Assembly: GCA_016839605.1 (NCBI GenBank)
Contig: JAEOTX010000044.1
Location: 31,854-95,853, forward strand
Source of the DNA: Candidatus Thorarchaeota archaeon
GTDB lineage: Archaea; Asgardarchaeota; Thorarchaeia; Thorarchaeales; Thorarchaeaceae
Reading direction: 5' to 3'
Length of the DNA: 64,000 bases
The translations under genes were made by a program, and so were the position numbers. Below the pieces are notes generated by a model. It saw only the letters and a list, made by a program, of their open reading frames with translations. It was not told where the DNA came from and ran no database searches. This document shows, in pieces, positions 34,876 through 52,278 of this stretch; within the stretch, counting starts at the first letter, position 1, and every line of letters begins with the position of its first letter.

Positions 34876-35772
34876 ATGTTGCAGAGCGGCCAGTTTGTAG
34901 TAACTGCTGAGATAAGCGCACCTCGAGGGTCGGACTACCTTTCGTTGCTTGAGAAGACGAGTATGCTCAAGGACTTTTGTGATGCAATCAATATACCGGA
35001 CAATCCCCGCAGAATACCAAGAATGAGCAGCATCGCCAGTGCACGTTTTGTTCTCGATGCTGGATCCGAACCGGTCTTACATATTGCAATGAGAGACCGC
35101 AATAGAGTTGCATTGATGAGTGACCTATATGGCGCACATGCTTTAGGAATCCGCAACGTTCTATTCGTTACTGGGGACCTTCCAGGTCTTGGGTCAGACA
35201 CCCAAGCCGAGATAGTTTCTGATATTGATTCAGTTCAGGCCTTGCAATTGGCTACTCGAATGATGGCTGGCAATGATCACGCTGGCGAAGAGCTAGAAGG
35301 AGTGCCCAATCTCTATCTGGGTGCGACCTTTGACCCATTTATTGAACCAATCAACGAACAGATTCGAAGAACAAGGTTGAAACATGAATCGGGTGCCCAG
35401 TTCTTCCAGACCCAAGCTGTTTACGATGTAGACCGCTTCGCAGAGTTTGTAGAATCTATTGAGGACCTGAATACGTATGTTCTGGCTGGTGTGGTCCCTC
35501 TGCAGGGACTCGAAATGGCCGAGTTTATGACTGAACATGTATCAGGCATCAACATACCTGATGCAATACTCCAGCGGCTAGAGAATTCTGCTGAGGGACT
35601 TGATGATGAGGAACAGGCAGCCCAGCAAGAAGGTCTGTTAATCGCGACGGAAACTATCAATTCACTGAGAATGATTGATGGTGTGGATGGTGTTCATATA
35701 ATGGCAGTAGGCTGGGAATCCTGCGTTCCAGAACTTGTCAAGTCTGCAGGTCTCTACCCCCGACCCAGTTGA
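34876..35772 (+). CDS. metF: methylenetetrahydrofolate reductase (MetF family)
   Basis: 298 aa with FVVTAEISAPRG, AINIPDNP, HIAMRDRN and NVLFVTGD, typical of MTHFR TIM-barrel proteins. Confidence 0.85.
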   Translation: MLQSGQFVVTAEISAPRGSDYLSLLEKTSMLKDFCDAINIPDNPRRIPRMSSIASARFVLDAGSEPVLHIAMRDRNRVALMSDLYGAHALGIRNVLFVTGDLPGLGSDTQAEIVSDIDSVQALQLATRMMAGNDHAGEELEGVPNLYLGATFDPFIEPINEQIRRTRLKHESGAQFFQTQAVYDVDRFAEFVESIEDLNTYVLAGVVPLQGLEMAEFMTEHVSGINIPDAILQRLENSAEGLDDEEQAAQQEGLLIATETINSLRMIDGVDGVHIMAVGWESCVPELVKSAGLYPRPS

Positions 35773-35784
35773 GGTAGAACAAAG

Positions 35785-36702
35785 ATGTTTGTCTTCAAGA
35801 AAGAACAGAAGTCGTTTGACATCAGAGGTATCACAATCGGAGGCTATCCCGGAGAGAACCCAACTGTCCTTATAGGGGGCCTCTTCTTCAAGGGACAATC
35901 CATTGTTGAGAATACAAAGGAGGGTCTATTTGACAAGAAAGCAGCAAAAGACTGGCTTGACACAGGGATTAGCATGGCTGAGAGAACCGGCCACCCACTC
36001 ATTGTAGAAGCATATGGCAGATCTGCTGTTGCTATGGAGCGGCATCTATCATGGCTTGTTGATAATTATGATGGGCCTTTCATGTACGAATCATCCAACG
36101 TAAGTGCTAGGAAGAGCGCCACTGAGTTCTGCAACGAGGCTGGTCTCACTGAGAGGGCCATTTACAATTCGGTCAATATATCGATGGATGAAGCTGAACG
36201 GGCATTCTTGAAAGAGAGTTCAATAAGCATGGCCGTATTGTTGGGATGGTCTCCAAAAGCAAGCTCCCTAAAGGACAGGATGGAAGTAATTGAAAACACA
36301 GTTGTCGAGGCGAAGACATTTGGAATAGAGAAATTCCTAGTCGACCCTGGTACTATGCCCGTAGGTGCAGGGTATGGTCTAGAACTAAGAACGACCATGG
36401 CAGTAAAATCAGAGTTGGGTCTGCCTACCTGTCTTGCACCTCATAATGCACCATCCGCATGGAAGTTCATCAGGGAAGAGGATTTAGACCAAGAGGAAAC
36501 AGCCAGCTCAGCAGTTATCGCGTCAATAGTTGCCGCTCAGTTGTTCGCAACCGATTGCATAATGTATGGTTCAATGAGAAGATCGCGAGAAGTCTTCACT
36601 GCAGTAGCTCTTACACAGAACGCAATTGCCGCTTCTGTTGCAGAGGCAAATCAGGTGCTCGGAGTGGAGAAACATCTTTTCGAGCCTATAGCAAGTGAGT
36701 AG
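35785..36702 (+). CDS. mtrH: MtrH-like pterin-binding methyltransferase, paralogue 1
   Basis: 305 aa. The N-terminus MFVFKKEQKSFDIRGITIGGYPGENPTVLIGGLFF matches the MtrH pattern (F-x-KEQ ... GG-x-PGE-x-PTVL). Starts 12 nt after metF. Confidence 0.85.
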   Translation: MFVFKKEQKSFDIRGITIGGYPGENPTVLIGGLFFKGQSIVENTKEGLFDKKAAKDWLDTGISMAERTGHPLIVEAYGRSAVAMERHLSWLVDNYDGPFMYESSNVSARKSATEFCNEAGLTERAIYNSVNISMDEAERAFLKESSISMAVLLGWSPKASSLKDRMEVIENTVVEAKTFGIEKFLVDPGTMPVGAGYGLELRTTMAVKSELGLPTCLAPHNAPSAWKFIREEDLDQEETASSAVIASIVAAQLFATDCIMYGSMRRSREVFTAVALTQNAIAASVAEANQVLGVEKHLFEPIASE

Positions 36703-36713
36703 GAGGTCAGGAG

Positions 36714-37397
36714 ATGTCGGGAAATGCATGGCCTCATGTGCCTGGGGACTTCGAAGTGGGAGACCCAAGTGGATCTGTTGCAATCTGTACCTTAGGTAAG
36801 AAGTTTCCAGTTCCTGGCAGCTATGCTATCATAGGCACATGCAAGACTGAGAATATTGGGATCGAACGGGTCATCATCAACATAATCTCGAATCCTTCTA
36901 TCCGCTTTCTAATTCTATCAGGACCTGAAGTACCAGGCCACCTGACAGGATCTTCAATGAAGTCGCTTTATGAGAACGGAGTTGACCCTGACACACGCAA
37001 GATCATAGATGCCCCTGGAGCTATTCCCTATATCGAAAATGTGCCACTTGAAGGAGTGGAGCGGTTTAGAAATCAGATTGAGTTTGTAGATATGATGAAT
37101 ATTTCCCGTGCAGAAGAGATTGCAGCAATGGCTGCAGAGTTGCATGCTAGAAACCCAGGCTCATTTTCTGGCGATCCTATGTTTGTAGATTTCAGAAGAG
37201 CTTCAAGTTCGACTCAGAGAATGGGAATCGGAGGTTCGATAACACTTCTCCCTGAATTTGGAGTATCACTGAGTCCCTTCTCCTTTTTAGTTGGTCCTCA
37301 GGAAACAAGCGCTGTACTCACTGCACATCCAACATCCATTGGCATAGAAGTGCAATCTAGCGAATCAGGGACGATTCTCATTGGAAAGGAGATATAG
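36714..37397 (+). CDS. mtrA: MtrA-like corrinoid-binding protein, no C-terminal transmembrane helix
   Basis: 227 aa with WPHVPGDFEVGDP, GTCKTENIGIERVIINIISNPSIRFLILSGPEVPGHLTG and GAIPYIENVPLEGVERF, closely following MtrA motifs. The C-terminal 60 aa are not hydrophobic. Confidence 0.85.
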   Translation: MSGNAWPHVPGDFEVGDPSGSVAICTLGKKFPVPGSYAIIGTCKTENIGIERVIINIISNPSIRFLILSGPEVPGHLTGSSMKSLYENGVDPDTRKIIDAPGAIPYIENVPLEGVERFRNQIEFVDMMNISRAEEIAAMAAELHARNPGSFSGDPMFVDFRRASSSTQRMGIGGSITLLPEFGVSLSPFSFLVGPQETSAVLTAHPTSIGIEVQSSESGTILIGKEI

Positions 37398-37400
37398 ACA

Positions 37401-38336
37401 TTGTTTGTGTTTCAAAAAGAGCAATACATCTACGATATTGGTGGTGTAAAGATAGGTGGCAATCCAGGTGAGACTCCCACTGTTCTAGCTGGGACAATAT
37501 TCTACGGAGGACATAAGATAATTCGGGATGCATCCAAGGGAATAGTGGATGAGTCTGCTGCTGAGGAGCTTATCAATAAACAGGAAACAATGTCCGAAAC
37601 AACTGGCAATCCCGCGATGGTTCAGATATTCTCCGAAACTGCAAATGCAATGAAGAGGTACATAGATTTCGTATGCTCACATACAGAATCTCCATTCATC
37701 ATCGATTCTACTGATCCTATGGTGCGGGTAGCAGGCTTGCATCATGCCGAAGAGATTGGACTCATTGACCGAGCAGTATACAACTCAATCAATATATCCG
37801 TAACTGAAGAAGAGCTGGATTCACTACGCGAACTCCAGCATGAGTGTGCCATTGTCCTTGCTTTCAACCCTCAAGATCCATCGACGGCAGGACGTAGAGC
37901 AGTGCTTGACGAGGGCGCAGCATCGCTAAAGCAAGGACTTCTGTCAATCGCAGAGGATGTAGGAGTGACAAAGCCACTAATTGACACAGCCACGACAGCT
38001 ATGGGCGCAGGAGCTGGCGCTGCTGTTTCATTTACTTTTGTATCCAAGACCCTTTATGGACACCCAACAGGGTCCGGAATTCATAACGCTGCATCATCAT
38101 GGACCTGGCTCAAGAAGTATAGAAAGGAGAACCGGGATGCCTACCAGATTTGTGATATCGCCTCGAATCTAGTCGTCCAGTCTTTAGGCGCTGACTTTAT
38201 CCTCTATGGGCCAATTGCTAACGCCAACAGAGTCTTTCCAGCAGTTGCAATGGCTGACATCTTCTCAGCCGAGTCTGCAAAGATGGAAATGGGTTTAGAA
38301 CCTCCTGAAAATCATCCTTTTAGGAAACTCCTCTAA
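37401..38336 (+). CDS. mtrH: MtrH-like pterin-binding methyltransferase, paralogue 2
   Basis: 311 aa. N-terminus MFVFQKEQYIYDIGGVKIGGNPGETPTVLAGTIFY. Clearly diverged from paralogue 1 beyond the N-terminus. Starts 3 nt after the mtrA-like stop. Confidence 0.85.
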   Translation: MFVFQKEQYIYDIGGVKIGGNPGETPTVLAGTIFYGGHKIIRDASKGIVDESAAEELINKQETMSETTGNPAMVQIFSETANAMKRYIDFVCSHTESPFIIDSTDPMVRVAGLHHAEEIGLIDRAVYNSINISVTEEELDSLRELQHECAIVLAFNPQDPSTAGRRAVLDEGAASLKQGLLSIAEDVGVTKPLIDTATTAMGAGAGAAVSFTFVSKTLYGHPTGSGIHNAASSWTWLKKYRKENRDAYQICDIASNLVVQSLGADFILYGPIANANRVFPAVAMADIFSAESAKMEMGLEPPENHPFRKLL

Positions 38337-38350
38337 GCGGAGGAAAAAAG

Positions 38351-39757
38351 ATGTCAAGAAAGCCGATTGTGGTTCGTCCCCGTAGCATTGGGCTTTCTTC
38401 ACTGCGCATGGGGCGGTTCTATACTGTTGCATCGGTTGAACTAGGCAACACGACCACGAAATGCATAATCGTAACAACGAATCTGGAGACCGCAGAGATT
38501 TTCGAGATTGAAAAGGAGATTCGGATGACCAGAGGTGTTCGTCCACCAGTGAAGGGCGAGGAGGTCTTTGGCCGTACCCTCACAGGTGTAGATCTGACCC
38601 GAGAATCAGTTACTGAGTTGGTGTCAGACATTCTCAGAACCGCATTGAATCGTGCACGCCTTGACATTGAGAATGACCTTCATTTCGTTGTACGTTCCAC
38701 GGGGGTGACCGCTGGATTTGCCGATCCGGAGGAGGTTGGAGCGATTGTAAAAGCACTTGCAGAAGGCTGTCTTCATGCAGGTGTAGCACCTAGAAAAATG
38801 GCTGCCGCTATATCGCCAGAGAATCTTCCTCCTAGTCTGAGGGACTTCACCTGGCTTCACAAAGTATATTTCGATGGTGCAGTTGCTAGTTCGCTTCCTC
38901 CATCAAATGCAGAGATAGTTGCTAACGAGATGGAGGGTGAGTTAGTAACAGCTGGATTGAAAGGAGCGGCAAAGAGTACAGATGTCGACTTCAGAAATCC
39001 AGTCATGACACTTGATTTTGGAACTACCCTCGCAGGAAGAATAACAGATAACGGGCATCCGTATGCAAAGACCATCGGCTCATTTGCAGGTCTGGCAGGA
39101 GCGATTCCTGATGCGTTGGTCAGGGGAACGGGAAATGTGGAAGAACAGACTGGTTGTATCCTTGATATCAAAAACTCCGAGCGCCCTCGGAAAAATCAGA
39201 TAGACGATTCTTGGGTAGATGAAATTCTTGCACATATACGAGTTGTACGAGTACCAACCGGAATTAGCAGATTTGGGACAGTTCCTGTCAACGTGAAAGC
39301 TGCAGAGGAATCTGACGTAATTCTGATGGGAGTAGATGCAGGAGAAAATGGATCTGGCCTATTAGACCTGGAACTAATCGGAAGGAAGATTGCTGAAGAA
39401 TCCAGCATTGATACACTGTTGGCTCTCATCGATGTTGTGCAATTTCATGTTGTGCAACGTCTGGTCAACTTAGCGATTTCTGAGGGACTAATTCTTGATG
39501 ACACTTCTTTCGGACTCACAGGAAGAGCAATCACGACTGGAAATAAGCCCAGATTAATCAATTCACAGCTCTCGCTAGAAGATGGCAAAAGGTGGACTGA
39601 GTCGCATCAATTGCTCTTTGTGGAAGATGGTCTAGCAATGGGTGCGGCAGTTGCCGCTCGGTGTATGAATTCAATGGGAACGATTCATAATCCAATGGGC
39701 GGCCGAAAGGGGGACAAGTGTATAATGGGTGCTCGAATGAAGCGTCAGCGGTCATAG
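38351..39757 (+). CDS. ASKHA-fold ATPase-like protein (diol-dehydratase-reactivase / corrinoid activase-like)
   Basis: 468 aa. The phosphate-1-like motif VELGNTTTKCII and a second DFGTTLAG motif resemble the actin/Hsp70-like ATPase fold seen in DdrA/PduG-type reactivases. No Fe-S Cys cluster motif. The assignment is tentative. Confidence 0.5.
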   Translation: MSRKPIVVRPRSIGLSSLRMGRFYTVASVELGNTTTKCIIVTTNLETAEIFEIEKEIRMTRGVRPPVKGEEVFGRTLTGVDLTRESVTELVSDILRTALNRARLDIENDLHFVVRSTGVTAGFADPEEVGAIVKALAEGCLHAGVAPRKMAAAISPENLPPSLRDFTWLHKVYFDGAVASSLPPSNAEIVANEMEGELVTAGLKGAAKSTDVDFRNPVMTLDFGTTLAGRITDNGHPYAKTIGSFAGLAGAIPDALVRGTGNVEEQTGCILDIKNSERPRKNQIDDSWVDEILAHIRVVRVPTGISRFGTVPVNVKAAEESDVILMGVDAGENGSGLLDLELIGRKIAEESSIDTLLALIDVVQFHVVQRLVNLAISEGLILDDTSFGLTGRAITTGNKPRLINSQLSLEDGKRWTESHQLLFVEDGLAMGAAVAARCMNSMGTIHNPMGGRKGDKCIMGARMKRQRS

Positions 39758-39833
39758 GGATTCAATGCTTCAAATCTGCTCATTGAGAGGTTTTATCTTA
39801 GTATGCCGCCTCGCCCGATTTGAGGAATCCTTT

Positions 39834-40646
39834 ATGGAAATCATCCCCATTCAGACACGAGTCATCTCTGAAGATGATGATATACTAGAAGTTCTTGTCA
39901 CTTCATTGCAGGATGTCGGTCTTGATTTGAAAGACAATGATATTCTCGGTATCGCAGAAACTCCATTGGGAACAACAGAAGGCCGCGTAATCAACCTTGC
40001 AGACGTTGAGCTCAGTGAGGAGGCGATTGAGCTTGCAGATGAGTATGACCTCATTCCTGAAGTGGCTGAACTCGTATTAAGGGAAGCAGATGAGATTCTG
40101 GGAGGGATTCCACATATTCTTCTGACCATCAAGAACAACACACTCATGGCCAATGCTGGTGTAGACAAATCCAACGTTCCTCCTGACCATGCATCTCTCT
40201 TACCTGTTGATTCAAGGAGCAGTGCAGAACGAATCAGGCTGGAAGCAAGGAACCGGTATGGAAGAGATATCGGGGTCTTGGTGATTGACAGTAGAACCCA
40301 ACCACTGCGTTTGGGGAATATCGGCATGGCGCTAGGTGTGGCTGGATTCCGACCAGTTGCGGATGACAGAGGAAGACTTGATTTATTCGGCAACGAGATG
40401 CGGATAACTAGGAGGGCAATTGCAGACAATCTTGCGTCGGCGTGTACAGCAGTGATGGGTGAGTCAGATGAATCAATACCTGGAGTATTAATTCGCTCTG
40501 CACCAGTGGAGTTTATTGACGAATCATTTGACTCCTCTGCAATGTGGATTAGTCCGCAGGAATGCATGTATATGGCCATATTCGACCAATGGCGAGTTGG
40601 CAGCTCAGCAGCGAAAAACGATGCGCGGATAGCATTCGAAGAATGA
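39834..40646 (+). CDS. CofE-like gamma-glutamyl ligase family protein
   Basis: About 270 aa from the ATG at 39834. ILGIAETPLGTTEGR, LMANAGVDKSNVP and VIDSRTQPLRLGNIGMALGVAGF resemble F420-0:glutamate ligase motifs. Confidence 0.7.
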   Translation: MEIIPIQTRVISEDDDILEVLVTSLQDVGLDLKDNDILGIAETPLGTTEGRVINLADVELSEEAIELADEYDLIPEVAELVLREADEILGGIPHILLTIKNNTLMANAGVDKSNVPPDHASLLPVDSRSSAERIRLEARNRYGRDIGVLVIDSRTQPLRLGNIGMALGVAGFRPVADDRGRLDLFGNEMRITRRAIADNLASACTAVMGESDESIPGVLIRSAPVEFIDESFDSSAMWISPQECMYMAIFDQWRVGSSAAKNDARIAFEE

Positions 40647-40851: not shown

Positions 40852-42252
40852 TTGCGCCATGAGCTGAATATATCGACCAGACCGGAGAATGATGATTTGA
40901 CGAAGATAGTCCTCATTGATGTCAAGACAGCTGGCACATCAGGGGACATGTTTCTTTCTGCATTGGTGGACTTTCTGGGTGAAGATGACGCTCTTCTTCC
41001 TGTGGCTGCAAGCCTACTAATATTTGACCCATCATTGCGAGTCCGATTTGCAACTAAAAGTGATGATGATATTTCAGGTGTTCAATTGAAGGTTTCAAAG
41101 GACTCAGGTATGCGCTTCAAACCGAACGATTTGATTGAGATGATGGATGCCGTAGCTGAGGAGTTGGAGCTTTCACCTGCCGCAAAGCAGATTTCCCAAA
41201 GGGCATTGAATGAGATTCTGAAAGCTGAATCAAGGGCCCATGAGACCCCGATAGACAAGTTGCACCTTCATGAAACTGGTTCAGTCGATACCATTCTCGA
41301 TTTGGTTGGAACTGCATATCTCATGGAACGCGCAGGACTTCTTATTGATTCAAAGATAATTGCCACTCACGTTGCGGTGGGGAGTGGTACAATTGAGACA
41401 GAGCATGGCCTTCTCGAAGTGCCTGTTCCAGCAGTAGCTGAGATACTTGTTGCTAATGACGTTCCGTTCATAATGGGTGAGGCTAAGACTGAAGTCCTAA
41501 CACCCACTGGCGCGGCTCTTCTCGCAACTTTGGCTTCTGAATTCATCGAGTCCTCAGAAGGATTCGTTGTCAAACAGCAGGGCATCGGATTCGGCTCTCG
41601 TGACTTGGGCGAGGTGGCCAACCGCATGAGGGTCGTTGTGGGCGAGTTCGTTGATGAATCAAAGGTTAAACCAAAGAAGCCTGAAAAGAAGCCTGAGAAG
41701 AAGGAACGACCTAAAAAAGAACCTACAAAGAAGAAAGCTGCACCAAAGAAGAAAAAGGAGGATCGAGCTGAGATGATTGATTCCTGGAGCGCGGATGAAG
41801 TAATCGTCATCGAGACCAATGTTGACGATATCGATGGTGAAGTCATGGGGACAATGTTCGATACTCTCCTGTCTGAGGGCTTGGCATATGATGTGGTGAT
41901 GATTCCAGCCTATGGTAAGAAAAATCGTCCCAGTTATGTGGTCAAGGTAATTGCAGCCAAATCTGGGCTGAAGAGCATAGCGGAGATTTTGATCAAACAT
42001 CTTGGAACTCTAGGAATTCGATACGCGACTTGGGACAGACTCAAAGCTGCTAGAGAGACCATTGTATGCAAAATGGAAATTGAGGGTCTGGAGTTCATGG
42101 TCCGTGTGAAGGTCTCTCGAGGCATTGATGGGAGCATAATCAACATCAAGCCCGAAGCTGATGATGTCATGAAGGTTTCAAGGGAAACCGGAATTCCAGT
42201 ACGTGCGCTTAAACCTAGGATTGCTATGCAAGCTCACGCAATTACCGAATAG
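40852..42252 (+). CDS. larC: LarC family nickel insertion protein (DUF111) with Lys-rich insertion
   Basis: 466 aa with N-terminal IVLIDVKTAGTSGDMFLSALVDF and HLHETGSVDTILDLVG motifs. The central insertion is KVKPKKPEKKPEKKERPKKEPTKKKAAPKKKKE. TTG start. Confidence 0.8.
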   Translation: MRHELNISTRPENDDLTKIVLIDVKTAGTSGDMFLSALVDFLGEDDALLPVAASLLIFDPSLRVRFATKSDDDISGVQLKVSKDSGMRFKPNDLIEMMDAVAEELELSPAAKQISQRALNEILKAESRAHETPIDKLHLHETGSVDTILDLVGTAYLMERAGLLIDSKIIATHVAVGSGTIETEHGLLEVPVPAVAEILVANDVPFIMGEAKTEVLTPTGAALLATLASEFIESSEGFVVKQQGIGFGSRDLGEVANRMRVVVGEFVDESKVKPKKPEKKPEKKERPKKEPTKKKAAPKKKKEDRAEMIDSWSADEVIVIETNVDDIDGEVMGTMFDTLLSEGLAYDVVMIPAYGKKNRPSYVVKVIAAKSGLKSIAEILIKHLGTLGIRYATWDRLKAARETIVCKMEIEGLEFMVRVKVSRGIDGSIINIKPEADDVMKVSRETGIPVRALKPRIAMQAHAITE

Positions 42253-46041: not shown

Positions 46042-46755
46042 TTGAACAAAATGCCTTTCCCAGCAAGGTCTATGATTCGAATTCGAAGAGCTAATGGATA
46101 CAAGATATTAGCTATCTTGCTTTCCTCGTCAGTTCTGATCACCACAACAATTGCATGCTTTCCTATCGCCTCATACGATTTACCACCCGGGCCTCTGTTT
46201 GATGAATTTCTCCTGGAAGGAAAGTTCTTGGGCTATGATCTGTGGATTGATGCGGGTGTTTGGGTAGTTATTGAGGTGTTTTCTGAATTCAATGCGAGAA
46301 TCAGAATCGAAACTTGGGTTGAGAGTGAGAGGGCTGCATATATTCTGAGCGATTCAACATCCACGCATGAGGAGTTCACACTGGGAAAATCCTCCCAGGG
46401 ACAGTCTGTGTTTATCTTGATCATTCCTAGACTAGATACCAATGTCCGGGCTGAGATAATAGATTCCTCTTCCACTGCTACTAACAAAATAGATGTTCTC
46501 CCCACTCATTCCTGGTTTCTGATTCTATCATTTTCAGCTGTTTTTGTAGACGCTCATTTGTTTTCTGGCTGGCTGAGAGACACAACTGAACAGAAGAGAG
46601 AACGAAAGGTGCGAGCAAAGAAGAAGCGTTCTGATGATGAAGTCTGTATACCTTTGGAATATGTCCTGATTTCAAGGGTAAGAAGCCTGTATGCCAAGCG
46701 GGATAAATCCGATAGATACTGCTTATGCGAGCGCCTTAAACACACGAGAGGCTAA
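46042..46755 (+). CDS. hypothetical membrane protein (uncertain)
   Basis: 237-aa ORF with two hydrophobic segments (ILAILLSSSVLITTTIACF, WFLILSFSAVFV) and a basic tail. Its 3' end overlaps the convergent gene 46723-47367 by 33 nt. No family recognised. Confidence 0.35.
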   Translation: MNKMPFPARSMIRIRRANGYKILAILLSSSVLITTTIACFPIASYDLPPGPLFDEFLLEGKFLGYDLWIDAGVWVVIEVFSEFNARIRIETWVESERAAYILSDSTSTHEEFTLGKSSQGQSVFILIIPRLDTNVRAEIIDSSSTATNKIDVLPTHSWFLILSFSAVFVDAHLFSGWLRDTTEQKRERKVRAKKKRSDDEVCIPLEYVLISRVRSLYAKRDKSDRYCLCERLKHTRG

Positions 46756-47367
46756 AAACCAGCTAATGTCCCCAAGCATCTCGTGGGGCTGGTAATAGAT
46801 CGAGTTCTTGTCGTAAAGCAGTCGAACATTGGCTGGAAACTCCTCGTCTGCCTCGTCGAATATGAGCAGGACCTTCACTTTTGGTAGGAACTCTAATTCA
46901 AATCCAGCATCTCCATAGTCCACTCTCTTTGCACCAAGGCGTTCCAAGGTCTTGAATAGCTTCTCTTTCTTCTCAACGAACACTGAAGTCAGTGCTTTGA
47001 CATCCTCCTCATCAAAGGAGTATCTACAAGCCCAGGAACCTTGAAGTGCATTGTATTTGGACCACTCACCAGCAACACCCACATCTTTTGCCTTAGTGTA
47101 GTAGTAAAGGTGAGGGATTATGCGACTAGTATGGAATTCTTTGCCAGTCATTAGATCCTCCGTTTTTCCCGTTTCAAAGTTGATTCGAAGACCTAGAACG
47201 TCAAGAAACCCTCCCTCAAGGTCCAAGACTTTCTTTAGCTTGACAATTTCCTCCCCAAAATTGTCCCAGTTCCAGAATTCTGAGCTCTTATCGAAATCAT
47301 TGATATTGAACCTTGCCGCGAGTTCGCGCGCTTCAGCCATCCAATATTCTAGAATATCATCCGCCAT
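46723..47367 (-). CDS. hypothetical protein, DUF3786-like
   Basis: 214 aa. The C-terminal pattern YGDAGFELEFLPKVKVLLIFDEADEEFPANVRLLYDKNSIYYQPHE resembles my recollection of DUF3786, a family often found near corrinoid/CODH genes. The family call has low certainty. Confidence 0.55.
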   Translation of the reverse strand: MADDILEYWMAEARELAARFNINDFDKSSEFWNWDNFGEEIVKLKKVLDLEGGFLDVLGLRINFETGKTEDLMTGKEFHTSRIIPHLYYYTKAKDVGVAGEWSKYNALQGSWACRYSFDEEDVKALTSVFVEKKEKLFKTLERLGAKRVDYGDAGFELEFLPKVKVLLIFDEADEEFPANVRLLYDKNSIYYQPHEMLGDISWFLASRVFKALA

Positions 47368-47512
47368 TGCAGGTCGTCAGACCTAAGCGGCAACCATCTT
47401 TGTATCTTTGGTTATGTCAGATTCTAGCAATTCATTCAATCGGCATAGACTCAAATATCACAAACGTAAAATAACGCCTAAGTCCCCGACAAAGGGATTA
47501 AGAGGTTTATAG

Positions 47513-48079
47513 ATGGTCACAGCACTCTTCAAAGTGATCTTGATGGGCGACGGATCTGTCGGAAAGACAAGTCTCAGGCGCCAGTACATGGGTGAAGGCT
47601 TTAGAGCCAACTACATGATCACCATAGGCGCTGACTTCGCAGTCAAGAAGATGACCCTTGAGGGAGGGCATGATGTCAGTATTCAAATTTGGGATCTTGC
47701 CGGGCAAGAGCACTTCAAGAATGTACGTTCTACGTTTTATAGGGGCGCACAGGGTGCACTAACCGTCTACTCCACTGTGGAACGCACTTCTTTTGACAAC
47801 ATCGGAAACTGGCTTGACGAATGCTGGAGCAATGCAGGCAAGAAGATTCCAATCGTTCTGATAGGCAATAAGATAGACCTCAGAGAGCAGTTCAAAGACA
47901 ATCCAGTGATGCAACAGACAATTGTGACCACAGAAGAAGGTCAGACTATGGCGAATCGAATAGCCGAACGCGGTGCACATGTCAGCTTCCTTGAGACTTC
48001 AGCCAAGACCGGCCTGAATGTCGAGGCATCTTTCCTCGAACTAGCTATTAAAATCCTAGAAGTGGGTGGTCTGACCTAA
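47513..48079 (+). CDS. Rab/Ras-like small GTPase
   Basis: 188 aa with G1 GDGSVGKTS, switch I ITIGADF, G3 WDLAGQE, G4 GNKIDL and G5 ETSAKTG. There is no C-terminal Cys (ends EVGGLT). Confidence 0.9.
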   Translation: MVTALFKVILMGDGSVGKTSLRRQYMGEGFRANYMITIGADFAVKKMTLEGGHDVSIQIWDLAGQEHFKNVRSTFYRGAQGALTVYSTVERTSFDNIGNWLDECWSNAGKKIPIVLIGNKIDLREQFKDNPVMQQTIVTTEEGQTMANRIAERGAHVSFLETSAKTGLNVEASFLELAIKILEVGGLT

Positions 48080-48106
48080 CCAATTCATACTCTAGGCGAA
48101 ACAGAC

Positions 48107-48505
48107 ATGGCATTAGGTGATTTTCTCTTTCCACATCTCGACCTGAAATTGGTGATAGCCCACTCCTTCGAGGTTGACATTGAGGCTGAGAAGGATAAGA
48201 AATCAAAGGAATATCAGGACCTCGCGGCAAGGGCGTCCTTTAGTAAGAGTGATTTCCAGAAGCTAGGCATCAAGGAAGGCGGTTCTGTCAACATCAAATC
48301 GAAGTCGGGCCAAGTCGTTGTGGGCGGATTCATTGATGAGCGGCTTGAAGATAGTGTGTCATCAATGCCTCGCGGACCTTGGGCACTATCTCTCGTAGCA
48401 GTTCCAACTGACGGTTCGCCTCCGCAATTGCATGGAATACAGGTCACAGCCACAAAATCGGACGATAAGATTACTTCTCTTGACTCTCTTTTGGAGGGCC
48501 CTTGA
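48107..48505 (+). CDS. FwdD-like molybdopterin-dinucleotide-binding (double-psi beta-barrel) domain protein
   Basis: 132 aa. ...FQKLGIKEGGSVNIKSKSGQVVV... and MPRGPWA resemble FwdD/FmdD and the C-terminal domain of Mo/W-bis-PGD enzymes. Starts 27 nt after the GTPase stop. Confidence 0.7.
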   Translation: MALGDFLFPHLDLKLVIAHSFEVDIEAEKDKKSKEYQDLAARASFSKSDFQKLGIKEGGSVNIKSKSGQVVVGGFIDERLEDSVSSMPRGPWALSLVAVPTDGSPPQLHGIQVTATKSDDKITSLDSLLEGP

Positions 48506-49853
48506 TTTTTGAAACAACTTTGTCCATTTGACCCCGCTCTACCTGCAGTGTCAATCTAGGACTTGATTTGAGCAGATTCAATGTACGCTGAGCGACCTTC
48601 ATCGCTTTATCTCGGACTCCATCCTCCGATTCCCATCCCTGTCCTTCTCGTATATTGACCCGTGCCCTCTCAGCAGCTAAGACAGTGATTTCCCTTTCAA
48701 AGAGTCCGCTTTTTGGAGGGTCATTGCCAATGACCGCTTCAAAGAACAGCCTTCTAGCCTTCTCCCACTCACGAACTTTCTCAAGCTCCTCAACATTGTA
48801 GCCATCACGTTTTGCTTCCAGAACATCATATGGGCAAGAATGCTCGCATGCTCCGCAGTAGAGGCAGTGCTCGGATATGTCGATTTTCTCTTCAGTTCCT
48901 GTCGGATGGATTGCTTTGACTGGACATATGTTGAAGCAGTTGTGACAGCCAACTGGATCACATTTGTCACGCCTTACTATGACTACTTCTCCTGAGAATG
49001 GCTTAGTGACCTTAAGAGCATCATAAGGACAGACCTGAGCGCATAGGCCACACTTCACGCAGGTCTCATCATTGTGGTGCAGCTCGCCTGATATCTTAGG
49101 ATCTTTAATGGTCCTGGGACTGGACTTGGTACATTCGACAGTTATAGCTTCATCTGGACATATCTTTGCACACAATCCACAGTAGTCGCATTCTTCGTCT
49201 ATGGCTCTGATACTTACTGCTGGTCTGAAATCAGGCGGTTCAGCTGATTCCGACCAGAAGATTTTGATTGCTTCAGGACAAAGGAGTTCGCACAACCCAC
49301 AAAGTGAACACTTGTCCTCGTCTATCTTTATTGTGCCTTCAGCTGATTCTTCACCCTCATACTTGACGAGGTCCTTCTTCCATTCGACTTTGACTTCAGC
49401 GTCGAGTGACTCAGTTGGGCAGACCTTTGCACAAAGTAAGCAGGGCGCACACTTCTCCTCATCAATTGTGTGGACTCCGTCGATGTTGACAAAGTCGTTG
49501 ATAGCTCCTTCTCCCTCATATTTGGCATCAAAGGCATTGAAAATGCAGGAAGAGTCGCAGAGTCCACAGAAGGTGCATAGCTCAGGATCGACATTCACGA
49601 GCGGAGCTCCCTCAATCCTTCCTGCTGCTGTTTCCTGAACAGGTCCAAGGGTAATTGCCTCCCAGGGGCAAGGTAGGCATAGACTGCAACCCACGCATTT
49701 GTCAATTGCATGGTCAAGAGTCTTCTTGAGCAACGAGGTTTTCCAGGCAAATTTCACCTTGCCATCTTCAATGTCCATGGACACGACAGGCTTCTCGCCA
49801 ACTGTAATATTATGTCGCTCCATGATGTTAGCCTCCGACTGCCTCTCTTGCAT
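48471..49853 (-). CDS. polyferredoxin (about eight [4Fe-4S] binding motifs)
   Basis: 460 aa with repeated CxxCxxCxxxCP motifs, e.g. CTFCGLCDSSC, CAPCLLCAKVCP, CSLCGLCELLCP, CDYCGLCAKICP, CVKCGLCAQVCP and CLYCGACEHSCP. Confidence 0.85.
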   Translation of the reverse strand: MQERQSEANIMERHNITVGEKPVVSMDIEDGKVKFAWKTSLLKKTLDHAIDKCVGCSLCLPCPWEAITLGPVQETAAGRIEGAPLVNVDPELCTFCGLCDSSCIFNAFDAKYEGEGAINDFVNIDGVHTIDEEKCAPCLLCAKVCPTESLDAEVKVEWKKDLVKYEGEESAEGTIKIDEDKCSLCGLCELLCPEAIKIFWSESAEPPDFRPAVSIRAIDEECDYCGLCAKICPDEAITVECTKSSPRTIKDPKISGELHHNDETCVKCGLCAQVCPYDALKVTKPFSGEVVIVRRDKCDPVGCHNCFNICPVKAIHPTGTEEKIDISEHCLYCGACEHSCPYDVLEAKRDGYNVEELEKVREWEKARRLFFEAVIGNDPPKSGLFEREITVLAAERARVNIREGQGWESEDGVRDKAMKVAQRTLNLLKSSPRLTLQVERGQMDKVVSKIKGPPKESQEK

Positions 49854-52278
49854 CCTGGGGCGGTTTGACAGTAGGCTTTTCTACTATTTCTCTGCCTAAT
49901 GGTCCAAGACGTGTTATTCTATTTACAAATCTCGTTACTTGCTCTGCGAAACTATCAGCTTCAGATGCGGAAGCACTACCAAAGTAAAGGCGTCCCCCAT
50001 CGATTCCTGAAGCCCTGAGCAACTCCCTTACCTTGCCCATCCTGTTCTGAGCATATCCGGCACCTGACCGATAGTGACAATCTTGAATGTGACATCCCAT
50101 GACTGCCACGCCATCAGCGCCCTCTGCAAACGCAGTCATTATAGTTACCACATTCAGACGTCCAGTACATGGAACCTGTATCGGTATCATATTCGGTGGA
50201 TAGGTAATCCTAGCAGTCCCGGCTCTATCTGCAGCCCCATAGGCACACCATCGACAAAGATATCCAACGATAGCTGGCTTCTGAGGATTATATTCCACCG
50301 CGGCCTTTGTTGCACTCAATAGCTGTTCATTCGTTAGGCATGGAAGATCAAGAGCCCCAGATGGGCACGCGGCCGCACATGATCCACATCCCCTGCAAGC
50401 AGCCATGTTAATCAATGGATGCTTTTCGTCATTGAAAGAAATCGCATCGGGAGTACAGTTCTGTTCGCACAAGCGGCAGCTGATGCATAGAGATGGATCA
50501 AGAGATGGAACACATGCCTCTGTAATCACCTTGCCACTAGTGAGCAAGGTCTTGACCTTTGATGCAGCAAGTCCGGCATGGGCTACAGTGTCAGAGATGT
50601 CCTTTGGACCCTGAGCTACTCCTGATAGAAAGACGCCCTTCGTCGGGGTTGTGCTTGGTCCAAGTTTGGGGTGTTGCTCAAGGAAGAAGCCGTTCTCATC
50701 TAATGGTACTTTGAGTAGCCTCGACAGAGCGATATTACTTGGCTCTGCATCCATTCCAACCATTAGGACAACAAGATCCACATCCATCTCGAGTTGCCGT
50801 CTTAGTGTTATGTCCTCTGCACGAATGCTTGTCTGACCAGTGACCGGATCTAGGACAACCTCACCGATCGCTCCTCGGACGAAATTCACCTTGTATTCCT
50901 TTGCCGCCCGGACTTGGAGTTCTTCATGTCCCTTTCCAAAGGTCCTTAAGTCGGAATGAAAGACGAAGGCCTCGATCTCAGGTATCTGCTGTTTGATTTG
51001 AACTACTTCTTTGACAGACGCTGTGCAACAAGCTCTACTGCAATACGGTCGTCCGAAGCGCTCTGAACGACTGCCTACACAAGGCACGAATACGACTCTT
51101 CTAGGCACTTCGCCGCTTGAAGGTCTGACAAGCTTTCCGCCACTCGGCCCTCCTGGGTTCAATAGCCTCTCGAGCTCCAATGATGTTATGACATCAGGAT
51201 TCTCCCCGTATCCAAGTTCCTCGACAATTCGTGGGTCAAATGGCATAAACCCTGTTGCAACAACAATAGCGCCTACGGTGACTGTTTCAGTAGACTCCTC
51301 TTCCTCATATCGAAGAGATTTTGGTTCGCATACCCCTGCACAGGATTGGCATCCAATACAGTTCTGAGTGTCTATGTAAGGTGCGAGAGGCACCAAGTCA
51401 ATCAATGGCCTCACCATAGCTTTTCTCTTTCCGAGCCCGTAATTGTACTCATCAGGGACCTCTACAGGACATACCTCTATACACTTGTTGCAGCCAGTGC
51501 AGGACTCTAGGTCAACAAATCTGGGTCGTTTTCTCAATGTCACATTGTAATGACCAACCGCACCTCTCACGTCAATGATGTCGGTCAAGGTCGATATCTG
51601 GATATTCTCATGCCTTGCGACCCTTGCCATCATAGGACCAAGAATACAGATTCCACAGTCAAATGTTGGGAACAGCTTGTCCCACTTTGCCATGTGACCT
51701 CCGAGGAATCCTTCCCTCTCTACTACAACCGTGCTTATGCCAGAATCAGCAAGCTCGAGCGCAGTGGTTAGTCCCGCAACACCGCCACCAATCACTAGCG
51801 CTTTCTGAGTCACAGGCACATCATGTGTGGTGATTGGATAGGATTTGTCTACTTTGGCTAATCCAGTGTCTATAATAGCTGCAGCTTTGGCAGTTGCTAC
51901 TTCTGGGTCATCATAATGTACCCAACTGCATTGCTCTCTGATGTTTGCCATATGGAGGTGTCCTGGGTTTAGTCCCGCCTCCTTCACAGCGTCAGAGAAC
52001 AGTTCCCTATGAAGGAGAGGCGAACATGCAGCAATAACAGCTTTGCCCACCTTGCTTTTCTTGATAGACTTAATCAGATCTACTACTCCTTGTTCTGAAC
52101 AAAAATGGTCGTTTACCTCAACAAGCGAGATTCCCTTGGCCTCGTATTTTGCCTTCAATGAGTCAACATCGATGGTGTCTGCGATATTTGAGCCGCATCG
52201 ACAAAGGTAGACTGCAGTCTTGTCAGTCTTTTTCTCTTTCTTCTTCTTGCTTTTCTTTTTGCGACTCACAATTTCCAC
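49828..52278 (-). CDS. hdrA: HdrA-like flavoprotein fused to a C-terminal MvhD domain
   Basis: 816 aa with the HdrA N-terminal pattern VYLCRCGSNIADTIDV ... AACSP and FAD motif VIGGGVAGLTTALELA, plus ferredoxin motifs. The C-terminal IVGYLCRWCAYGAADRAG ... PCTGR ... MGCHIQDCHY is MvhD-like. Confidence 0.9.
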   Translation of the reverse strand: MEIVSRKKKSKKKKEKKTDKTAVYLCRCGSNIADTIDVDSLKAKYEAKGISLVEVNDHFCSEQGVVDLIKSIKKSKVGKAVIAACSPLLHRELFSDAVKEAGLNPGHLHMANIREQCSWVHYDDPEVATAKAAAIIDTGLAKVDKSYPITTHDVPVTQKALVIGGGVAGLTTALELADSGISTVVVEREGFLGGHMAKWDKLFPTFDCGICILGPMMARVARHENIQISTLTDIIDVRGAVGHYNVTLRKRPRFVDLESCTGCNKCIEVCPVEVPDEYNYGLGKRKAMVRPLIDLVPLAPYIDTQNCIGCQSCAGVCEPKSLRYEEEESTETVTVGAIVVATGFMPFDPRIVEELGYGENPDVITSLELERLLNPGGPSGGKLVRPSSGEVPRRVVFVPCVGSRSERFGRPYCSRACCTASVKEVVQIKQQIPEIEAFVFHSDLRTFGKGHEELQVRAAKEYKVNFVRGAIGEVVLDPVTGQTSIRAEDITLRRQLEMDVDLVVLMVGMDAEPSNIALSRLLKVPLDENGFFLEQHPKLGPSTTPTKGVFLSGVAQGPKDISDTVAHAGLAASKVKTLLTSGKVITEACVPSLDPSLCISCRLCEQNCTPDAISFNDEKHPLINMAACRGCGSCAAACPSGALDLPCLTNEQLLSATKAAVEYNPQKPAIVGYLCRWCAYGAADRAGTARITYPPNMIPIQVPCTGRLNVVTIMTAFAEGADGVAVMGCHIQDCHYRSGAGYAQNRMGKVRELLRASGIDGGRLYFGSASASEADSFAEQVTRFVNRITRLGPLGREIVEKPTVKPPQDAREAVGG

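Follow-up and report, generated by a model that had tools for sequence, protein, structure and literature searches.

Methanogenesis marker 14 beside the MtrA and MtrH genes of a Thorarchaeial archaeon, a possible reactivation factor for MtrA

What does a protein named for methanogenesis do in an Asgard archaeon? The question is raised by a 64,000-nucleotide stretch of DNA (hereafter the window) from a Thorarchaeial (Asgard) metagenome-assembled genome (MAG) of 3.08 Mb and 80% completeness, in which an open reading frame (ORF) on the + strand (38351..39757) follows genes for MtrA- and MtrH-like proteins. In methanogens and anaerobic methanotrophic (ANME) archaea, Mtr is the methyltransferase central to energy conservation, and its cobamide must be in the oxidation-sensitive Co(I) state. 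The ORF, which begins with an ATG preceded at 7 nt by a GGAGG sequence and encodes 468 residues, was described in an original prediction, made from the sequence alone, as an ASKHA-type ATPase lying 14 nt after the second mtrH-like gene and as a possible corrinoid reactivation factor of a new type. The ORF coordinates agree with that placement (the preceding stop lies at 38336), and Pfam and NCBIfam models recognize the MtrAH genes upstream. The protein itself is not new: it is the Thorarchaeial ortholog of methanogenesis marker 14 (Mmp14; TIGR03285 / DUF2114 / arCOG04866), a family whose link to Mtr is published. We argue below that Mmp14 is most likely an accessory factor of the MtrA/MtrH corrinoid methyltransferase, acting on the MtrA/MtrH half, and that its foremost candidate role, to which we give a probability of roughly 45%, is that of an ATP-dependent reactivator of the MtrA cobalt.

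Family identity and association with MtrA

The assignment to methanogenesis marker 14 rests on a TIGR03285 score of 604.8 bits against a cut-off of 274, with residues 23-467 aligned to profile positions 1-445 of 446, and on a match to PF09887 (DUF2114) with E = 2.2e-187. The closest database relatives (64-97% identity) carry the names Thorarchaeota or Promethearchaeota, and when 1.84 billion cluster representatives were searched exhaustively with phmmer, 127 matches were returned, of which only about 20 are full-length clusters; a divergent subfamily of ~390-400 aa exists as well. The protein has the same length, motifs, conserved cysteines and mtr association as methanogenesis marker 14 elsewhere, for example MMP1223 of Methanococcus maripaludis; what differs is the host, an Asgard archaeon. 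No Mcr was found in it, and by published accounts its Mtr complex is reduced to MtrA and MtrH. The MAG contains a single MtrA match and a single Mmp14, and no match to McrA was obtained in this 80%-complete assembly. The restriction to methanogens that gave the marker its name does not hold for the family, which is carried by 43 of the 44 sampled genomes of the host's own Asgard family; that restriction is a property of the name and not of the protein family.

We compared the occurrence of Mmp14 and MtrA in 201 Halobacteriota genomes and 201 Asgard genomes, two samples whose counts are not phylogenetically independent. Among the Halobacteriota, 125 genomes have both Mmp14 and MtrA and 70 have neither, with four encoding Mmp14 only (two of these cases being fragments) and two having only a weak MtrA-like match. 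In the Asgard sample, Mmp14 was found in the 43 genomes of the host family and in one other genome, and in 0 of the remaining 156. Moreover, 21 Asgard genomes with only lower-scoring, mostly fused MtrA-like proteins are without Mmp14, and thus the presence of Mmp14 tracks canonical MtrA and not corrinoid proteins generally.

Several individual genomes in these samples deserve mention. The sole Asgard Mmp14 outside the host family belongs to a genome of another family (G009) that also encodes the highest-scoring MtrA (221 bits) and two MtrA-like genes, and its Mmp14 may be due to lateral transfer or to a binning contaminant. Three Halobacteriota genomes (G239, G396, and G401) have two copies of Mmp14, and tandem mtrA duplicates occur in many genomes of that sample. 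In small (1.0-1.5 Mb) Halobacteriota genomes, in-frame TGA codons interrupt the Mmp14 of G271 (two codons) and of G232 (one) as well as the MtrA of G243 (one); in otherwise full-length genes, these could reflect recoding, sequencing errors or decay.

The genomic neighborhood of Mmp14 was assessed at 80 loci fetched from GTDB species genomes, including 13 loci from Thorarchaeial-type archaea. All of these 13 loci, as far as the relevant flank is present, have Mmp14 immediately preceded by MtrH-MtrA-MtrH and immediately followed by CofE-LarC; the full MetF-MtrH-MtrA-MtrH-Mmp14-CofE-LarC string is contained in seven of them, with the MetF-like gene in its conserved position, and the CofE-like gene directly follows Mmp14 at each of the ten loci that have a downstream flank. 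In the Methanobacteriales (17 loci), mtrH is followed on its own strand by Mmp14 at a distance of 0.5-5.5 kb, in some cases directly; a Na+/Ca2+ exchanger gene stands between the two at some of these loci. Of the 116 Halobacteriota genomes for which the positions of both genes are listed, 39 have Mmp14 and mtrA within 15 kb of each other on the same contig, 34 of them within ~6 kb. Across the Methanobacteriales and many Halobacteriota, the gene is found 1-11 kb from mtrA or mtrH. Tight linkage to corrinoid genes is therefore found here and in many other genomes, and the outcome that was to overturn the original prediction (a confident place in an unrelated ASKHA clade, with no such linkage elsewhere) did not arise.

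These observations agree with the literature, in which two studies independently tie the family to Mtr (PMC4153887; PMC9635834). Borrel et al. (2014) reported that arCOG04866 (marker 14) is absent from the Mtr-less Methanomassiliicoccales and lies near mtr in Methanosaeta, Methanobacteriales, Methanopyrales and Methanocellales (PMC4153887), and Adam et al. (2022), who list the family as m26_DUF2114, found that Thorarchaeia keep MtrAH without the other subunits, i.e., no MtrB-G, and called the marker in Thorarchaeia a "remnant" (PMC9635834). The Mtr association of the family, Thorarchaeia included, was thus already published (PMC4153887; PMC9635834 supplement), and neither the existence nor the genomic context of the gene is new. 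Searching the literature by the names Mmp14, DUF2114 and arCOG04866 and by locus tags turned up no functional study, fold assignment or mechanism. To the published picture we add a confident prediction of the fold, the placement of Mmp14 outside all known B12-servicing ASKHA families, three near-invariant cysteines (C140, C438, and C457), and an argument from the Thorarchaeial gene cassette that narrows the client of Mmp14 to MtrA/MtrH.

That argument is as follows. Of the proteins linked to Mtr, Thorarchaeia have retained just MtrA, MtrH and Mmp14, and therefore the client should be the MtrA/MtrH half of the complex, which points away from an accessory role for the membrane, Na+-pumping part of Mtr or for Mcr. 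We rejected roles tied to MtrCDE, the L-cluster, coenzyme M (CoM) chemistry, Na+ pumping or Mcr, since Thorarchaeia are without these; an L-type cluster has recently been reported in MtrCDE. A role in general cobamide biosynthesis was likewise rejected, as the phyletic pattern does not fit.

A predicted ASKHA fold and its conserved residues

The AlphaFold2 model of Mmp14, built from a 30-sequence alignment of Thorarchaeial proteins and members from six methanogen lineages, has a predicted local distance difference test (pLDDT) score of 88.3 and a predicted template modeling (pTM) score of 0.90. A Foldseek comparison with the PDB gave 94 matches at E <= 1e-3, and among the matches listed, 50 out of 50 are ASKHA proteins, including Qri7/Kae1/TsaD, levoglucosan kinase, glucokinases, Hsp70s, RACo, glycerol kinases, PanK-III, Ppx, ROK and FtsA. 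The first three of these groups provide the best matches. No match is close, however, the template modeling (TM) score normalized to the query being <= 0.43 throughout, at 8-13% identity. We therefore predict with confidence that Mmp14 adopts the ASKHA fold, with two RNase-H-like domains (beta-beta-beta-alpha-beta-alpha-beta-alpha) and an interdomain cleft, in keeping with the ASKHA-type protein that had been proposed.

At the sequence level the family stands apart. Searches of PDB sequences with the single protein and with the 30-sequence profile returned nothing significant, and in a Pfam scan of 17 diverse members at E <= 10, DUF2114 was the only family returned and no ASKHA family appeared; in particular, PF14574 (RACo_C_ter) had no match at that threshold, and PF01869 (BcrAD/BadFG) gave a weak match (E = 0.051) in one of the 17 members. 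Comparisons by hhalign with alignments built from the same genomes were not significant for RACo_C_ter (13 sequences; probability 1.2%) or for BcrAD/BadFG (probability 1.7%) and paired generic DxGT and GG loops only. Pfam DDR, EutA and MutL had no match in the 17 members, and DdrA, EutA, GlmL and HgdC were not among the top 50 Foldseek structural matches; the resemblance to the DdrA/PduG N-terminus that had been suggested thus found no support. Nor is there a confident placement in a sugar kinase or hydantoinase clade, with no Pfam match, a kinase TM of ~0.4 and 9-12% identity. Membership in the RACE family was ruled out by the lack of a PF14574 match, the hhalign probability of 1.2% and the missing iron-sulfur (Fe-S) domain, and membership in DdrA/EutA/GlmL by the Pfam and structural results. 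The kind of profile check that had originally been suggested accordingly pointed to no specific ASKHA clade, sugar kinases and hydantoinases included, and Mmp14 is best described as a predicted stand-alone ASKHA nucleotide-binding protein, and presumptive ATPase, in a family of its own.

We counted residue conservation in 154 family members. Both phosphate motifs that had been quoted from the sequence are present, VELGNTTTKCII at residues 29-40 and DFGTTLAG at residues 222-229, and they fall within two loops that, together with an adenosine-type motif and a segment ahead of the last core helix, are invariant or nearly so (Table 1). The three threonines T34-36 of the phosphate-1-type loop are also (near-)invariant, as are the segments RSTG (residues 115-118) and NEMEGEL (residues 192-198). 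The phosphate-1, phosphate-2 and adenosine roles are putative, being assigned by pattern and by the register of hhalign alignments with non-significant scores, in which the DFGTTLAG loop is paired with the DYGTN loop of RACo and the adenosine-type motif with the VGG motif of BcrAD/BadFG. The invariance of these ATP-site-type motifs across the 154 members argues for a working nucleotide site in Mmp14.

Mmp14 has five cysteines (C38, C140, C270, C438, and C457), no CxxC motif and no Fer2/Fer4 Pfam match in its sequence. The original prediction had noted the lack of a CxxC-type motif and called the cysteines scattered and single. They are not merely scattered, as C438 is conserved in 154/154 members, C140 in 153/154 and C457 in 151/154; C38 is present in 140/154. 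In the model, C140 is at a helix end in the N-terminal half, C438 at the end of the last long helix, and C457 in the tail beyond. The three could lie together and a metal site would be possible. The C-terminal tail (Table 1), in which more divergent members have additional cysteines, is a candidate metal- or partner-binding element.

A divergent DUF2114 subfamily of ~350-400 aa from MSBL1/Persephonarchaea is without both the phosphate-loop (ATP-type) motifs and the Cys tail. At both of its loci (L084:8001-9044 and L085:8001-9206), the gene adjoins, divergently, two MetE-like (Meth_synt_2) core methionine synthase genes. This subfamily is uninformative on the mechanism of Mmp14.

Candidate roles of Mmp14

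ASKHA ATPases serve corrinoids in two known ways, with RACo and RamA carrying out an ATP-gated reduction of Co(II) to Co(I), and DdrA, EutA and GlmL an ATP-driven cofactor exchange. Of 12 tested methanogen genomes that carry Mmp14, six, among them a complete Methanobacteriaceae chromosome, showed no RACo/RamA-type activase, and M. jannaschii has Mmp14 and no RamA/RACo homolog; methanogens of this kind therefore need some other solution for the activation of Mtr. The activase is an acknowledged gap, because a 2025 paper on the structure of Mtr calls it "as-yet uncharacterised" (Reif-Trauttmansdorff et al., PMC12774963). An Mtr-linked protein with a predicted ASKHA fold, together with the absence of RACo/RamA from half of the methanogen hosts tested, leads us to rank reactivation of the MtrA cobalt first. 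From fold and genomic linkage we infer not only this role but also the underlying ATPase activity, the interaction with MtrA and the involvement in redox or repair.

In such a mechanism, Mmp14 would bind MtrA, and its binding and hydrolysis of ATP would return the inactive Co(II)-cobamide to the catalytic cycle. If it acts in the manner of RACo/RamA, the ATPase would alter the ligand environment of the cobalt and a low-potential electron would then reduce Co(II) to Co(I); that electron might be delivered by a separate ferredoxin or through a site built by C140, C438 and C457 (plus C38).

A number of points weigh against reactivation. The basis for this interpretation is computational. Mmp14 has no detectable sequence relation to corrinoid activases or adenosylcobalamin (AdoCbl) reactivases, its closest structural matches (Kae1/Qri7 and sugar kinases) are small-molecule enzymes, and, as an Fe-S domain is missing, a source of electrons must be assumed. 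The gene is unlinked to mtr in the Methanosarcinaceae and Methanococcales loci examined, the neighborhoods in Methanosarcinaceae, Methanothrix and Methanothermococcus contain no conserved informative neighbor, and the co-occurrence counts come from phylogenetically non-independent genomes. Finally, MtrA could in principle be served by an AcsV/RamA-type activase for which the Thorarchaeial genome also has a gene. That gene (contig C219:1-2780) is cut off by the contig start and is followed by genes for an MtgC/MtbC-like B12-binding corrinoid protein and a DNA-methylase-like protein; the genome thus has another corrinoid system, a canonical one equipped with an activase of its own.

The ASKHA fold is common to Hsp70 and the cofactor-exchanging reactivases, and Mmp14 could instead be a loading or assembly chaperone, Hsp70- or DdrA-like and redox-free, with ATP driving either the insertion or exchange of cobamide in MtrA (apo or damaged) or the assembly of MtrA and MtrH. 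The missing Fe-S domain would then need no explanation, and DdrA/PduG, EutA and GlmL/MutL are likewise ASKHA ATPases without Fe-S clusters that serve B12 enzymes as chaperones. Synteny and co-occurrence with MtrA serve this alternative equally as well as they serve reactivation, and at three Methanobacteriales loci (L035, L042, and L069) a gene for a CobY-like MobA-type nucleotidyltransferase, of a cobamide-biosynthesis type, lies 1.7-3.2 kb downstream of Mmp14, although it scores below cut-off with both the TIGR00454 and CobY models; at L069 it is followed by a gene for a PRC-barrel protein. However, the clients of the known chaperones are radical AdoCbl enzymes and not methyl-corrinoid carriers, Mmp14 has no specific similarity to DdrA, EutA or GlmL, and its near-invariant cysteines are left unexplained. 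We also know of no report of a dedicated ATP-driven cobamide insertase in the corrinoid methyltransferase systems (MtaC/MtbC-type, CoFeSP). Taken together, we regard a chaperone role as unlikely, if the best placed of the alternatives to reactivation.

The cysteines themselves would allow a more specific form of reactivation, in which Mmp14 would be a reductive Mtr activase with its own metal or Fe-S site, formed by C140, C438 and C457 (plus C38) in the ASKHA core and the C-terminal tail. There is a parallel in the "archerases" HgdC/BcrAD/BadFG (and methanogenesis marker 15), which have the ASKHA fold in common with Mmp14 and, as small free-standing enzymes, use ATP hydrolysis to drive low-potential electron transfer through a cluster ligated by a few cysteines, with no ferredoxin motif; the conserved cysteine positions of Mmp14 differ from theirs, however, and the profile similarity is not significant. 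We consider an activase of this form doubtful. If it were true, Mmp14 would represent a third, independently evolved ATP-coupled delivery of low-potential electrons, beside RACo/RamA and HgdC/BcrAD, and nature's minimal version of it would be the soluble Thorarchaeial set of MtrA, MtrH and Mmp14.

Equally doubtful is a small-molecule kinase or Kae1-like transferase that makes a metabolite or cofactor for MtrA/MtrH, for example by modifying a pterin or a cobamide tail. The best structural matches, to Qri7/Kae1/TsaD, levoglucosan kinase and glucokinases, are of this type, and cofactor-tailoring neighbors are found both in Thorarchaeia (CofE-like) and in Methanobacteriales (CobY-like). Against this, the TM scores of those matches indicate no kinase clade specifically, and the distribution of Mmp14 follows canonical MtrA and not general corrinoid use: the 21 Asgard genomes with other MtrA-like proteins are without it, and so are the Methanomassiliicoccales, which use corrinoid methyltransferases (PMC4153887).

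It is improbable that Mmp14 has been kept beside mtrAH by descent alone and now has no function, or one that does not concern the corrinoid module. Adam et al. (2022) did use the word "remnant" for Thorarchaeia (PMC9635834), and the gene is unlinked to mtr in Methanosarcinaceae and Methanococcales. But the frames are intact, full-length and free of internal stops in 43 of the 44 sampled genomes of the host family, dozens of positions do not vary between Thorarchaeial and methanogen sequences that are ~50% identical, the gene sits inside a translationally tight operon, and its linkage to mtr has been kept across very distant lineages.

The notion of a divergent RACo/RamA (RACE, COG3894) member that has lost its ferredoxin domain is effectively refuted by the profile comparisons, since even though RACo structures (3zyy, 4c1n) appear at Foldseek ranks 10, 24, 28 and 43 and the genomic context includes a corrinoid protein, the family-specific profile is undetectable in all 17 members, the TM to RACo (0.22-0.31) is below that of many other ASKHA proteins, and the genome encodes a bona fide AcsV/RamA homolog at another locus. 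Like the RACE activators (RACo of Carboxydothermus, RamA of Methanosarcina, and AcsV), Mmp14 is a predicted ASKHA-fold ATPase whose gene stands beside that of a corrinoid methyl carrier; unlike them, it is a single-domain protein of ~470 aa without a [2Fe-2S] or 2x[4Fe-4S] domain or a RACo_C_ter signature, and has its own conserved Cys-containing tail.

The Thorarchaeial cassette and its significance

Mmp14 is the fifth gene of a tight + strand operon of six, with gaps of 3-14 nt, in the order MetF-like, divergent MtrH-like, MtrA-like, canonical MtrH, Mmp14 and CofE-like (Table 1); a LarC-family gene lies 205 nt beyond the CofE-like gene. The MtrA-like protein, which we propose as the candidate client of Mmp14, contains a PGHLTG segment; no hydrophobic helix is obvious in its polar C-terminal tail, and the protein appears to be soluble. 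The two MtrH-type proteins share ~33% identity, and MtrH1 is the nearer of the two to MtgA-type scores. Two differing MtrH-type methyltransferases thus flank one soluble MtrA-like carrier, with a MetF-like reductase ahead (34876-38336), a layout that would fit a methyl shuttle between two acceptors or pools of one-carbon (C1) carriers. The CofE-like protein is below the cut-offs of both CofE models (NF009809, 190.6 vs. 274; TIGR01916, 178.3 vs. 180.65) and also matches a model named "putative folate metabolism gamma-glutamate ligase". A few kilobases downstream, on the - strand (46723-52278), the window encodes a DUF3786 protein, a polyferredoxin with at least five 4Fe-4S motifs and an HdrA-MvhD fusion, which are possible candidates for low-potential electron donors outside the operon.

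Table 1. Genes of the Thorarchaeial cassette and conserved elements of Mmp14; positions refer to the window, and conservation is given as the number of the 154 family members.
Feature	Position	Strand	Evidence or detail
MetF/MTHFR-like protein, first operon gene	34876..35772	+	Pfam MTHFR 6.9e-30; 12-nt gap to next gene
MtrH1, divergent MtrH-like pterin methyltransferase	35785..36702	+	Pfam MtrH 8e-71; TIGR01114 239.6 bits, below the 271.4 cut-off
Soluble (predicted) MtrA-like corrinoid protein, 227 aa	36714..37397	+	Pfam MtrA 8.8e-56
MtrH2, canonical-type MtrH	37401..38336	+	TIGR01114 410.5 bits, above the 271.4 cut-off
Mmp14 / DUF2114 protein, predicted ASKHA fold	38351..39757	+	TIGR03285, PF09887, predicted fold
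Putative phosphate-1-type loop S28-V-E-L-G-N-T-T-T-K37	38432..38461	+	S28, G32, N33 154/154; E30, K37 153/154
Near-invariant Cys140 codon	38768..38770	+	Present in 153/154
Putative phosphate-2-type loop D222-F-G-T-T-L-A-G-R230	39014..39040	+	G224, G229 154/154; D222, T225, T226 153/154
Putative adenosine-type motif F386-G-L-T-G-R-A-I393	39506..39529	+	G388, G391, R392 154/154
V424-E-D-G-L-A-M-G-A-A433, ahead of last core helix	39620..39649	+	G431 154/154; D426 153/154
C-terminal tail R437-C438 ... P448-x-G-G ... C457 ... R462	39659..39736	+	G451 153/154; R437 152/154
CofE-like gamma-glutamyl ligase	39765..40646	+	Pfam F420_ligase 1.3e-65; 7 nt after Mmp14
LarC-family nickel-insertion protein	40852..42252	+	Pfam Ni_insertion 5.1e-95; TIGR00299 and NF052512 above cut-off

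If Mmp14 is the Mtr activase, an orphan "marker" protein gains a function. Should it turn out to be a chaperone or a kinase instead, it would still be among the few conserved methanogenesis markers without an assigned role. Compared with the membrane complex and its eight subunits, the Thorarchaeial cassette of MtrA, two MtrH proteins and Mmp14 could offer a simpler system for tests.

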